DNA of 64,000 nucleotides, taken from assembly GCF_030384885.1 (NCBI RefSeq), contig NZ_CP128613.1. The stretch is one strand, 5' to 3'. Below, piece after piece: positions 6,811 to 8,223 of the stretch (position 1 is its first letter; every line of letters begins with the position of its first letter). Both the position numbers and the translations under genes were made by a program. The notes under the pieces are model-generated. The model was not told where the DNA came from. It searched no databases and saw only the letters and a program-made list of their open reading frames with translations. The stretch comes from Escherichia coli (GTDB lineage: Bacteria > Pseudomonadota > Gammaproteobacteria > Enterobacterales > Enterobacteriaceae).

Positions 6811-7386
6811 ATGCAAAAAGTAAAACTGAACAACGGTATTGAAATGCCCCTGTTGGGCTTTGGTGTATTTCAGATGACCGATGCCGCCGAATGCGAAAGA
6901 GCGGTCATTGACGCTATTAACACCGGTTATCGACTGATTGACACCGCCGCCTCTTATCAAAATGAAATCCAGGTCGGGAACGCACTGAAACAAAGCGGTA
7001 TCGCCCGTAACGAACTCTTTGTCACCACGAAACTCTGGTTGCAGGATACCAGTTACGAAGGGGCCAAAGCCCAGTTCGAACGCTCTCTGAATCGACTGCA
7101 ACTTGATTACGTTGACCTGTACTTGATTCACCAGCCATATGGCGATGTCCACGGAGCCTGGCGTGCCATGGAAGAGCTGCAACAGGCCGGTAAAATTCGC
7201 GCTAATGGCGTCAGTAACTTCCATCCTGACCGACTGGCAGACCTTATCGCTTTTAATAACGTCGTTCCGGCGGTAAACCAGGTTGAAGTTAACCCTTTCA
7301 ATCAGCAGCTGCAGGCCGTTCCCTGGATGCAAAGTCGTGGCATTCAGCCAGAAGCCTGGGCACCGTTTGCGGTTACAGGGCGGTAA
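6811..7386 (+). pseudogene. aldo-keto reductase, 3'-truncated (191 aa instead of about 270-285)
   Basis: N-terminal 190 aa paralogous to the AKR at 1-732 ([25 protein letters not shown]) then abrupt stop; downstream sequence is AT-rich and unrelated. Confidence 0.6.
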
Positions 7387-7578
7387 GCGATTATGCATCT
7401 ACCTATTTACGTCGGTCACTCAGTCAGAGTCTTGCCCATATTCAATGAGGTTCAACACCGCAGCCAATGAAAAGTAGGCCATGCGGGGATTAATAGCATT
7501 ACTCATTAACCAATCGCTCTTTTCATTTACGTGCTCTTTATGTAACGTATTGCTTTTATTGATCTTCCTAGAGTTTGC

Positions 7579-7935
7579 ATGAATAAGAATCTCATCCTCG
7601 CATTTGCATTATTTTCCTTACCTGTATTTGCAGAAGAAGATCTGGGGCCAGGCAAATATGTTTGTGACATTAGGATTTCCAGCCTGGATACCGCTACTCA
7701 AATTCTGTCAAAATCCGCAACAGTTCTCGATAATGGAAACAATTTCATCGTTCAAATGCCAAATGGAGATCAATTGTACTCTCCAGATCTGGAAAATGTT
7801 GATGATGGTATAAAACAAAAAGCAACAATAGGTGGAGTGACATTTATTCGTCGTCCAACTTTTAACGATCGCTTCATCGTGGAAGATGGAAATACAGGAT
7901 TCTTCTATAAGATGCGAAACTGCGAGAAGAAATAA
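7579..7935 (+). CDS. hypothetical secreted protein (signal peptide), low-GC islet
   Basis: 118-aa ORF, N-terminal hydrophobic signal-like segment MNKNLILAFALFSLPVFA; AT-rich composition. Confidence 0.45.
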   Translation: MNKNLILAFALFSLPVFAEEDLGPGKYVCDIRISSLDTATQILSKSATVLDNGNNFIVQMPNGDQLYSPDLENVDDGIKQKATIGGVTFIRRPTFNDRFIVEDGNTGFFYKMRNCEKK

Positions 7936-8223
7936 AGGAAGTTTGATAGCGATATCCTCCTGATTTTCAGGCTTTGTACCTGTTCAAGACTTACAACTAC
8001 AAGCCGCTACGTGTTAACGCCTCCCAAAATAACCACCGTTAACCGTAGCGGCCATAGATACTATTATTTTAGCCACATTACTGGTGATAATGATAATTGA
8101 TATTATGGCCGTATAGAAAATAAGTATTAATTATCAGAAAGTTTATTATGTAAACGCGTCCTAATGATTACGTTATTCCTCTTACCGATATTCGCCCAGA
8201 GCAACCATCAATTACACACATCA

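Follow-up and report, generated by a model that had tools for sequence, protein, structure and literature searches.

Differences of the type called O-islands or S-loops distinguish Escherichia coli O157:H7 from other E. coli. We have analysed a 64,000-nucleotide stretch of E. coli DNA, here called the window, which contains a foreign patch of 680 bp (positions 7373-8052, plus strand). The patch resembles the strain-specific replacement islets of O157:H7, it is short, restricted in lineage and lower in GC content, it occupies a fixed site and it carries a hypothetical gene with a disrupted native gene alongside. It differs from them in its very small size, in having no mobility genes, att sites or direct repeats at its borders (junctions read, together with the locus annotation), and in being a replacement whose origin can be traced to island DNA flanking thrW in other genera.

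The thrW gene is an integration hotspot, and its islands include the CP4-6 region of K-12 and P22-type prophages. The patch contains an intact gene for a 118-aa protein followed by a short tail, and homologues of both adjoin thrW, or a thrW 3' fragment that has been displaced by a prophage or a P4-like element. In contrast to these the patch lies 28 kb from the thrW of the window (36121-36196) and has no thrW-derived core sequence, so it was not placed by an integrase at an att site; the annotation of the locus contains no integrase. We regard it as likely that the locus is a derived form of the fdeC-ykgR region, a structural allele in which a 680-bp fragment from a thrW flank replaced 2,278 bp of native DNA by illegitimate joining.

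The extent of the patch is given by BLAST against strain NC101. Reading of the junction places the left end at 7372|7373. Window positions 7373-8049/8052 have no counterpart in NC101, positions 8874-11151/54 of the NC101 locus (L002) are missing from the window, and homology resumes at about 8050/8053. The right end of the patch, 8052, is the last base of a hairpin. The islet stands in place of 2,278 bp of native genes and is not a simple insertion. The junction sequences are GCACCGTTTGCRGTTACAGGGCGG and CGTAGCGGYCATAGATAC, and because meaningful homology is absent from both (0-2 nt) the joining would have been by illegitimate recombination, not site-specific or homologous recombination.

The patch consists of the 3' half of a small secreted-protein gene, the intact 118-aa gene and the tail that ends at the hairpin base; no second copy or repeat of it is found within the window. 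To its right lies native intergenic DNA (8053-8223, 31.6% GC) that is common to the full-length haplotype, as judged by homology with NC101. This is followed by a retained LysR-family regulator of 308 aa (8224-9150, minus strand; Pfam HTH_1 and LysR_substrate, PGAP), which is 98.3% identical to that of NC101, convergent with the 118-aa gene and divergent from an alpha/beta hydrolase gene (9307-10227). In the full-length haplotype the order of genes is aldo-keto reductase (AKR, 283 aa), second AKR (329 aa), LysR (297 aa), LysR (308 aa). The lost segment comprises codons 188-283 of the first AKR, the entire second AKR, and the first LysR gene with 51 nt upstream of it. O157:H7-type strains thus differ in a small way from other E. 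coli, by the loss of a two-gene AKR cluster and the adjacent LysR gene.

A preliminary description of this DNA had an AKR gene cut at the edge of a low-GC islet at 7387-8220. A foreign, lower-GC segment encoding a predicted secreted protein does start where the AKR is cut, its true extent being 7373-8052. The sequence beyond the AKR is indeed AT-rich (GC is 38.6% in 7387-8220, 40.6% in 7373-8052 and 50.2% in the whole window), with a composition that is only moderately unusual, as 9.5% of 680-bp windows have GC as low as the patch. Native intergenic regions and the adjacent LysR gene are equally low in GC, and third-position GC is 0.33 in the 118-aa gene, 0.34 in the neighbouring native hydrolase and 0.375 in LysR.

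The disrupted gene belongs with the DkgA/DkgB-like AKRs (PF00248; NCBIfam NF008598; PDB 4MHB), the family that residues 1-187 of the stump match. It is not DkgA itself, because even the full-length protein scores under the NCBIfam cut-off (260 bits against 425). The open reading frame at 6811-7386 encodes 191 aa. Its native part, the 5' two-thirds of the gene (codons 1-187, 6811-7372, plus strand), is now a pseudogene by BLAST against NC101, Pfam and PGAP, and direct reading of the sequence shows that four foreign codons (VTGR) and a stop at 7373-7386 close the frame. DNA identity to NC101 is 99.3% up to 7372, where homology ends; against the 283-aa NC101 orthologue residues 1-187 are 98.4% identical and the sequence is divergent thereafter. 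The Pfam Aldo_ket_red match is strong (E 6.2e-38, 131 bits against a cut-off of 24) and covers only positions 3-193 of the 291 in the profile. In strain 2013C-4282, which has an identical locus, NCBI PGAP annotates the stump as a pseudogene 'missing C-terminus'.

The solved structure of an orthologue, 4MHB, aligns end to end with the 283-aa AKR over all 283 residues. The truncation proposed in the preliminary description is therefore genuine (191 aa against 283 aa), and the objection that full-length homologues might also be about 190 aa fails, because both the NC101 orthologue and 4MHB have 283 residues. The stump is without the last 96 residues of the orthologue. It therefore lacks a complete (alpha/beta)8 barrel, which takes about 275-330 residues where the stump has 187 native ones, and also the C-terminal cofactor-binding segment (the AKSVRKERMEEN region of the 283-aa orthologue), ending as it does at residue 187 plus VTGR. 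The translation retains D44, Y49, K74 (in TTKLW) and H107 (in LIHQP), which we take to be the Asp-Tyr-Lys-His catalytic tetrad of the AKR family. The AKR with the patch is a dead stump, in which the catalytic positions are kept and the last third of the barrel is gone.

A second, paralogous AKR (WP_001353426.1, annotated aldo/keto reductase, L001 1397-2266) is present at the start of the window, on the minus strand at 1-765 and thus inverted relative to the stump. It has 289 aa in full, its 3' end being cut by the window edge. It had been suggested that these two genes, which do bracket ykgA-fdeC in inverted orientation, form a substrate for homologous inversion. The orientation holds, but the proteins are 44% identical and the genes about 57% identical globally at the DNA level; BLAST pairs them over a single stretch of 110 bp at 72.7%, and nowhere do they agree over more than 11 consecutive nt. 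Inversion by RecA-dependent recombination in E. coli would call for roughly 20-30 identical bases, a length that the two genes fall well short of. A query spanning rclC, the AKR and ykgA was searched against a spread sample of 5,069 genomes (5,102 places for 5,072 records). It gave two classes only: 2,932 genomes are collinear throughout, and the other class, also collinear, has the internal deletion of the K-12 type. None of the matches listed shows an inverted arrangement, and the locus is collinear in every haplotype examined. The AKR paralogues are old and inversion between them, to which we assign almost no probability, is effectively refuted. A false lead around the fdeC adhesin gene is thereby removed, and the finding is otherwise ordinary strain-to-strain variation, not a set-up for inversion.

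The patch and the segment it replaces were counted in 5,426 complete genomes. The patch occurs at an identity of at least 99% in 315 of these, always as a single copy, the carriers being O157:H7, O55:H7 and a few others; in Sakai the region has been annotated as ECs_0334/ECs_0335 since the genome was published. The replaced 2,278-bp segment is present in 1,888 genomes (about 35%), and genomes with neither form carry a deletion. In K-12-type strains the whole region is gone, with window positions 6797-11450 deleted. The full-length form is six times commoner than the patch form and spans diverse lineages. That the patch haplotype is instead ancestral, and the full-length AKR/AKR/LysR/LysR form arose by insertion, is a formal possibility only, one that we consider barely credible: every homologue has the complete domain of which the stump is missing one third, the left junction also cuts the small gene, giving a double truncation, and the commoner, more widely distributed form is the full-length one. 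We take it that the full-length arrangement would be ancestral, and that the replacement would date from an ancestor that the O157:H7/O55:H7 group shares with a few other lineages.

A single origin of the patch is suggested by its identity of at least 99% and single copy in the 315 carriers, and by junction positions that are identical in seven of the seven haplotypes compared. Independent insertion in two lineages was weighed, since as far as the junction the AKR stump of the window and that of Sakai are 3.6% apart (20 differences in 562 bp, against five in the 680-bp patch). The flank polymorphisms are mosaic across the seven haplotypes, which favours one origin with flank recombination, and the two-lineage explanation was rejected. 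Such mosaic flanks suggest later recombination beside the hypervariable fdeC, as would be expected there. The lower divergence of the patch may reflect purifying selection together with recombination in the flanks, a pattern that repeated insertion would also give.

The left part of the patch (7373-7477, plus strand) is the remnant of the small secreted-protein gene, cut by the left junction. In a tblastn search with a 64-aa protein of locus L031, residues 30-64 match window positions 7370-7459 with 65.7% identity (E 2.8e-9), and the remnant carries an internal deletion of five codons. Full-length or near full-length copies of this gene are found in L015, L037, L018 and L006, and in Siccibacter homology at the DNA level reaches the left junction.

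The tail (7941-8052, plus strand) contains the hairpin. Alignment and BLAST show its homologues at a distance of 95-96 nt from thrW, or from a 3' fragment of thrW, in Klebsiella, in E. coli PCN061 and CM192843, in Cronobacter and in 11 contigs of a viral collection, the thrW fragment in these contigs lying about 96 nt beyond the tail element. BLAST with 7966-8052 gives 72-84% identity to L005, L010, L015 and L022. Besides the 315 carriers, the 25 other genomic matches to the patch query are thrW-side copies of the tail only.

Other genomes keep the 118-aa gene and the tail together without change of order or orientation, at a distance of 1.1 kb in Klebsiella and about 0.43 kb in Cronobacter and L034. 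In Siccibacter the small-gene remnant is contiguous with the 118-aa gene, and 40 nt separate the end of that gene from a thrW fragment. In L031, L037 and L018 the upstream DNA encodes a small tyrosine recombinase and the small secreted protein whose gene is cut in the patch. The contexts of the homologues include a P4-like element in Siccibacter, P2-like tail genes in Enterobacter, the end of a P22-like gtr region in Cronobacter, an IncF-type plasmid context (L019) and the thrW flanks of Klebsiella. Klebsiella, Cronobacter, Siccibacter and other E. coli have the gene, the tail or both next to thrW or a fragment of it that has been displaced, and island DNA from a thrW flank is therefore the most likely source of the patch. 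The flanks in question would be those of other enterobacteria, where small islands encode a small tyrosine recombinase as well as several secreted proteins of small size. The result would be the death of one AKR, the loss of the linked second AKR and adjacent LysR, and the gain of one small Sec-exported protein.

A donor with exactly the spacing of gene and tail seen in the patch (18-30 nt) was not found, and the patch may therefore have undergone an internal deletion or derive from an unsampled variant. This bears on a two-step history, in which a larger thrW-type island entered the AKR cluster, perhaps by misdirected integration, and later deletions left 680 bp. The patch does resemble a deletion derivative, given the distance of 0.43-1.1 kb between gene and tail elsewhere and the five-codon deletion in the small-gene remnant. 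The locus also tends to suffer deletions and insertion sequence activity, examples being the K-12 deletion and IS3, ISEc8 in Sakai and IS1 in XJ34. Yet no haplotype intermediate between the full and 680-bp forms was found among the 5,426 complete genomes, the same 680 bp is present in all 315 carriers, and the locus holds no integrase or att remnant. Such a history is possible but doubtful, and we prefer direct replacement by the short fragment.

The hairpin at the right end (8003-8052), which the preliminary description had noted as a nested palindrome, is real. The fold has a 17-nt loop on a stem of 9+7 bp (16 pairs) in which one T is bulged. As RNA its free energy is -24.7 kcal/mol (z -6.48) and as DNA -16.6 kcal/mol (z -6.54); none of 200 shuffles folds as well. 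Across five homologues 88.8% of the cells are paired, compared with 17-47% in slid registers. The five sequences contain two compensatory pairs, a weak level of covariation that 76 of 500 shuffles reach and that, with so few sequences, is not significant.

Several known classes of element were considered for this hairpin. An intrinsic (Rho-independent) terminator would have the 16-bp G+C-rich stem that is seen here, but the loop is 17 nt and there is no U-tract, the stem being followed by CATAGATAC on the plus strand and CTTGTAGTTG on the minus strand; the terminator scan did not list it. In an integron attC site an imperfect palindrome is bounded by outer core sites, R'' (RYYYAAC) and R' (GTTRRRY). 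The outer arms here, GCCGCTACG...CGTAGCGGC, read as lacking this core consensus, and GTTAAC appears in the inner stem only. REP/BIME elements, an IS200/IS605-type end and a MITE were rejected, the sequence being found at one place per genome with no second copy in the window. Apart from thrW itself, Rfam matched nothing in window 6200-9400 (E up to 1) or, at the gathering threshold, in five related loci. A conserved block upstream of the hairpin in the thrW flanks was also considered as coding sequence, but its open reading frames look spurious, and no family or RNA model matched it. Between the convergent 118-aa and LysR genes the hairpin would most plausibly act as a stabiliser of RNA 3' ends or as an insulator, and not as a classical terminator.

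The coincidence of the right junction with the last hairpin base raises the question of whether the segment moves as a discrete unit, or whether recombination takes place at the hairpin as at attC or an IS200/IS605 end, insertion being site-specific and perhaps repeated. Homology between the window and the thrW-side copies stops exactly at the hairpin end, the patch is less diverged than its immediate flanks, and donor-type islands carry a small tyrosine recombinase. Against this, there is one copy per genome at one site only, and the left end lies inside a gene and has no matching inverted repeat. In other genomes homology runs about 96 nt beyond the hairpin to thrW, so the hairpin is not the end of an element there. 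The outer stem, GCCGCTA...TAGCGGC, appears to be without the attC core (RYYYAAC...GTTRRRY), and the mosaic flanks fit a single origin. We therefore consider insertion as a mobile unit very improbable.

A right end at the 3' base of a very stable hairpin and a left end in the middle of a gene give the shape expected of a fragment trimmed by exonuclease. The fragment might have been incoming single-stranded DNA, or cDNA of a transcript whose 3' end was defined by the stem-loop, and might have been pasted in by double illegitimate recombination. It is a speculative and unlikely idea that the locus is the fossil of such a hairpin-protected, possibly RNA-templated insertion, and that the 118-aa protein represents a new family of barrels carried as cargo by thrW islands with a protective role as inhibitor or immunity protein. 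For research on illegitimate recombination the hairpin-end junction is a minor curiosity.

The intact gene in the patch (7579-7935, plus strand; ECs_0334 in O157:H7 Sakai, WP_001038968.1) encodes the 118-aa protein, a predicted periplasmic small beta-barrel. The preliminary description had proposed a signal-peptide reading frame here, and the gene is real, being conserved in other genera under purifying selection (dN/dS 0.035-0.133). Judged from its residues the N-terminus, MNKNLILAFALFSLPVFA|EE, would be a Sec signal peptide that has no lipobox, with a putative n-region MNKN, h-region LILAFALFSLPVF and cleavage site VFA|EE, features that appear to be kept in all homologues. O157:H7-type strains have in this way gained a conserved, predicted secreted protein that otherwise travels beside the thrW integration hotspot.

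A confident structure model was obtained for the protein, and from it we predict a small beta-barrel exported to the periplasm. The barrel would probably be closed and stapled by a disulfide between C29 and C115. Its fold matches are generic; those compared were the small soluble eight-stranded beta-barrels of the envelope (PliC/MliC, the Neisseria ACP lysozyme inhibitors, YceI and the C-domain of NHBA) and the Cap15 barrel. The protein shows neither profile similarity to the PliC/MliC-type lysozyme inhibitors nor a specific structural match to them. Searches of Pfam, NCBIfam and PHROGs gave no significant family (best PHROG E 0.017), and an exhaustive profile search of 1.84 billion representatives gave only six relatives (clusters), so there is no distant annotated homologue to lend a function. 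A 113-aa neighbour in Klebsiella was considered as a paralogue and rejected, with 26% identity and large gaps. This orphan family gains a modelled structural class and a genomic habitat. Our tentative best guess is a periplasmic binding or inhibitor protein of the type carried as cargo by mobile elements. Searches of the literature by locus tag and gene name found no description of the locus and a single table entry, from a microarray study of Sakai in which ECs0334 changes by -2.07 log2 at the transition to stationary phase (PMC2241611).

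The stretch belongs to the E. coli chromosome, and over the first 14 kb it has 99.99% identity to strain 2013C-4282 (NZ_CP027579). It begins with a gene for a 289-aa aldo-keto reductase (AKR; 1-765, minus strand) that is cut by the window edge, followed by a ykgA-like AraC regulator (981-1871) and the adhesin gene fdeC (1992-6245, minus strand). The AKR under study (6811-7386) comes next, then a 118-aa ORF (7579-7935) and a LysR regulator (LysR-308; 8224-9150, minus strand), after which lie alpha/beta hydrolase and flavin oxidoreductase genes, then ykgR, ykgMO and the ecp operon.

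The AKR at 6811-7386 had been described as truncated, and this is borne out. Its ORF of 191 aa covers only positions 3-193 of a 291-position Pfam profile, PGAP annotates it as a pseudogene with the C-terminus missing, and the orthologue in NC101, a strain with the full-length haplotype, has 283 aa (98.4% protein identity over residues 1-187, divergent thereafter). The solved structure of an AKR orthologue (PDB 4MHB) also aligns across all 283 residues; full-length homologues are thus not of about 190 aa, and the AKR in the window is without the last third of its barrel. A substitution in the conserved IRAIGVSNF motif of this stump (I132N, 7204-7206), also present in strain 2017-02-2CC, is compatible with relaxed constraint on a pseudogene, and the stump is presumably inactive.

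It had also been proposed that the two AKR genes, as inverted paralogues, provide a substrate for inversion of the ykgA-fdeC segment. Their identity is 44% at the protein level and about 57% in DNA; BLAST gives a single match of 110 bp at 72.7%, with no identical run longer than 11 nt, which is far short of what RecA-dependent recombination requires in E. coli. A 1.6-kb query over rclC, AKR and ykgA matched 5,102 places in 5,072 records; the matches listed showed no sign of inversion and fell into just two classes, one collinear throughout (2,932 genomes) and the other a collinear K-12 internal deletion. The coverage classes of the other AKR were likewise discrete. We reject the inversion reading on the low DNA identity and the purely collinear classes.

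Among 5,426 complete E. coli genomes the locus takes three forms. The full form carries AKR-283, AKR-329, LysR-297 and LysR-308, and its diagnostic 2,278-bp segment occurs in 1,888 genomes. The window form, in which a foreign patch of 680 bp (7373-8052) stands instead of the 2,278 bp, occurs in 315 genomes. In the K-12 form the sequence corresponding to 6797-11450 is wholly deleted; this deletion (K-12-type locus L003) starts 14 nt before the AKR start codon and stops just short of ykgR. K-12-type strains also have a separate deletion of most of the other AKR paralogue (165-749) and IS3 in fdeC, and Sakai, an O157:H7 carrier of the patch, has ISEc8 near ykgM. The locus is a hotspot for deletions and IS elements.

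With a slash marking the break, the left junction reads ...CCGTTTGCGG/TTACAGGGCGG in the window, ...CCGTTTGCGG/AAGGGAAAAATGG in NC101 and ...GCAG/TTACAGG in Sakai. The right junction reads ...CGTAGCGGC/CATAGATAC, ...GAAGGGGGG/CATAGATGC and ...GCGGT/CATAGAT, respectively, which places the right end of the patch at the last base of a hairpin. These exact junctions support and sharpen the preliminary description, in which the AKR was cut at the edge of a foreign islet. The replacement removed AKR codons 188-283, 51 nt upstream of LysR-297 and two entire linked genes, AKR-329 and LysR-297; an intact, conserved and transcribed small gene was gained, and the event spared LysR-308 along with the hydrolase and oxidoreductase genes divergent from it. 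The patch locus is a lineage-restricted replacement allele, already annotated but undescribed, and of modest interest.

The sequence past the truncation had been called low in GC, which holds in part. The patch has 40.6% GC vs 50.2% for the window, but its native neighbours are just as AT-rich and about one tenth of 680-bp windows are as low. The GC3 of the 118-aa gene (0.33) is not below that of the native hydrolase gene.

The left end of the patch (7373-7477) holds what is left of a gene for a small secreted protein: its translation, in its own frame, is the C-terminal half, matching residues 30-64 of a 64-aa protein of the thrW-flank locus L031 (65.7% identity, tblastn E 2.8e-9). This gene is complete in related loci; in related islands a small tyrosine recombinase lies directly upstream of it. 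The left junction cuts both the AKR and the small gene at once, so the patch haplotype is derived. The right end is a hairpin-containing tail (7966-8052 by BLAST, about 7941-8052 by alignment) with matches of 72-84% identity in 25 further E. coli genomes, Klebsiella and Cronobacter. In all cases these copies lie 95-96 nt from the tRNA-Thr(CGU) gene thrW, an integration hotspot, or from a displaced thrW 3' fragment. An exact-pattern scan of a viral collection gave 11 more copies, in which a thrW 3' fragment follows about 96 nt on and abuts prophage DNA; these are therefore the bacterial flank of thrW-integrated prophages. In the other genomes homology runs on past the hairpin, and in the window only it ends at the hairpin's last base.

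The linkage of the 118-aa gene to the tail, with order and orientation preserved, recurs in Klebsiella, Cronobacter and locus L034. Gene and tail are about 0.43 kb apart in the latter two and 1.1 kb apart in Klebsiella, with a 113-aa gene (phrog_5474) and a 50-aa ORF in between. In Siccibacter the small-gene remnant is contiguous with the 118-aa gene, as in the window, and the latter ends 40 nt from a thrW fragment with a P4-like element beyond. The 118-aa gene was also found beside P2-like tail genes and in an IncF-type plasmid context. The simplest reading of these arrangements is that the patch would be a piece of thrW-flank island DNA. The thrW of the window (36121-36196) is 28 kb away, and the patch contains no thrW core sequence, hence it was not placed by an integrase. 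In the thrW-flank loci (L031 4494-4950; L010 2100-2560; L037 8800-9215) a block of several hundred bases on the upstream side of the hairpin is conserved between copies of the E. coli type and those of the Klebsiella type; it contains no convincing ORF and matches no Rfam family.

The hairpin corresponds to a palindrome reported earlier (8003-8052), which is confirmed as a stable fold with a 16-pair stem, one bulge and a z of about -6.5 whether RNA or DNA. Its 17-nt loop and the absence of a U-tract argue against a classical terminator. It is kept across genera with two compensatory pairs and 88.8% of cells paired vs 17-47% when slid, in a comparison of five sequences, too few for significance. 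Lying between the convergent 118-aa and LysR genes, the hairpin may stabilise or insulate RNA 3' ends.

Microhomology of at most 1-2 nt is possible at either junction; on the left the donor type is ...CAAGAG/TTACAGGG and the recipient ...TTTGCGG/AAGGG. The junction sequences indicate illegitimate recombination at both ends. Since the right end is the hairpin base, we speculate that the incoming fragment had its end protected or defined by the hairpin; as an alternative, equally speculative, it could have stalled replication or repair.

The 118-aa gene is intact, and its protein sequence is invariant across all patch haplotypes examined. Homologues with 53-83% identity occur in Siccibacter, Enterobacter, Klebsiella, Cronobacter and a few metagenomes, and an exhaustive search of 1.84 billion proteins found only six related representative clusters. 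The dN/dS against five homologues is 0.035-0.133. The presence of the Sakai gene (ECs0334) in a microarray study, where its level drops by 2.07 log2 units as cells pass into stationary phase (PMC2241611), shows that it is transcribed. The N-terminus resembles a signal peptide (VFA/EE) without a lipobox, and C29 and C115 are invariant. A confident AlphaFold2 model (pLDDT 88.2, pTM 0.77) is all-beta with nine strands; it has no significant Foldseek match, and the protein matches no family in Pfam, NCBIfam or PHROG. The product is an orphan, predicted to be a secreted beta-barrel protein, and has its natural home at the thrW integration hotspot. It would be exported, with a C29-C115 disulfide linking the first and last strands to close it, and by analogy with other small barrels carried on mobile DNA it may be a periplasmic binding or inhibitor protein.

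In two bovine isolates (XJ34 and XJ6-3, locus L028) a 776-bp IS1 inserted at 7963 separates the 118-aa gene from the hairpin tail. On one metagenomic enterobacterial contig (L016 3364-4712 and L017) a 118-aa homologue lies directly behind a LysR gene that is divergent from a flavodoxin-like/YCII/AKR (342 aa)/ABM cluster. This second, unrelated LysR-AKR neighbourhood is probably a coincidence.

All 315 patch copies are single and at least 99% identical. Window and Sakai are set apart by 20 differences over the 562 positions of the AKR stump, extending as far as 7371, but by only 5 over the 680 of the patch, which raises the possibility of independent insertions. Across seven patch haplotypes the variable sites of the stump are mosaic: XJ34 has Sakai alleles at 7239-7323 and window alleles at 7122-7155 and 7335-7371, and EC42405 has another mixture. 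Diversity among these haplotypes drops with distance from the hypervariable fdeC, and variable sites make up 7.8% of the intergenic region on the fdeC side, 4.8% of the stump, 1.2% of the patch and 1.3% of LysR. The mosaic stump and this gradient favour a single acquisition of the patch, after which the fdeC-side flank would have recombined with alleles of strains without it; such tracts could reach the homology boundary but not cross it. The fdeC gene itself (1992-6245) has 92.4-94.4% identity between strains vs 97-99% for its neighbours, a pattern that suggests frequent exchange of alleles of this adhesin.

Further along, a defective lambdoid prophage of 13.2 kb is present at thrW (22870-36196), bounded on one side by thrW (36121-36196) and on the other, at about 22870, by a repeat of the thrW 3' end. 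It encodes an integrase (34943-36106), antiterminator Q (32915-33604), Rz (31367-31828), the terminase large subunit (27817-29550), a portal protein (26628-27623) and a DUF6602 protein (23352-24695). The window thus derives from a close relative of strain 2013C-4282 rather than from that strain, which is without this prophage, yet is 99.99% identical on either side.
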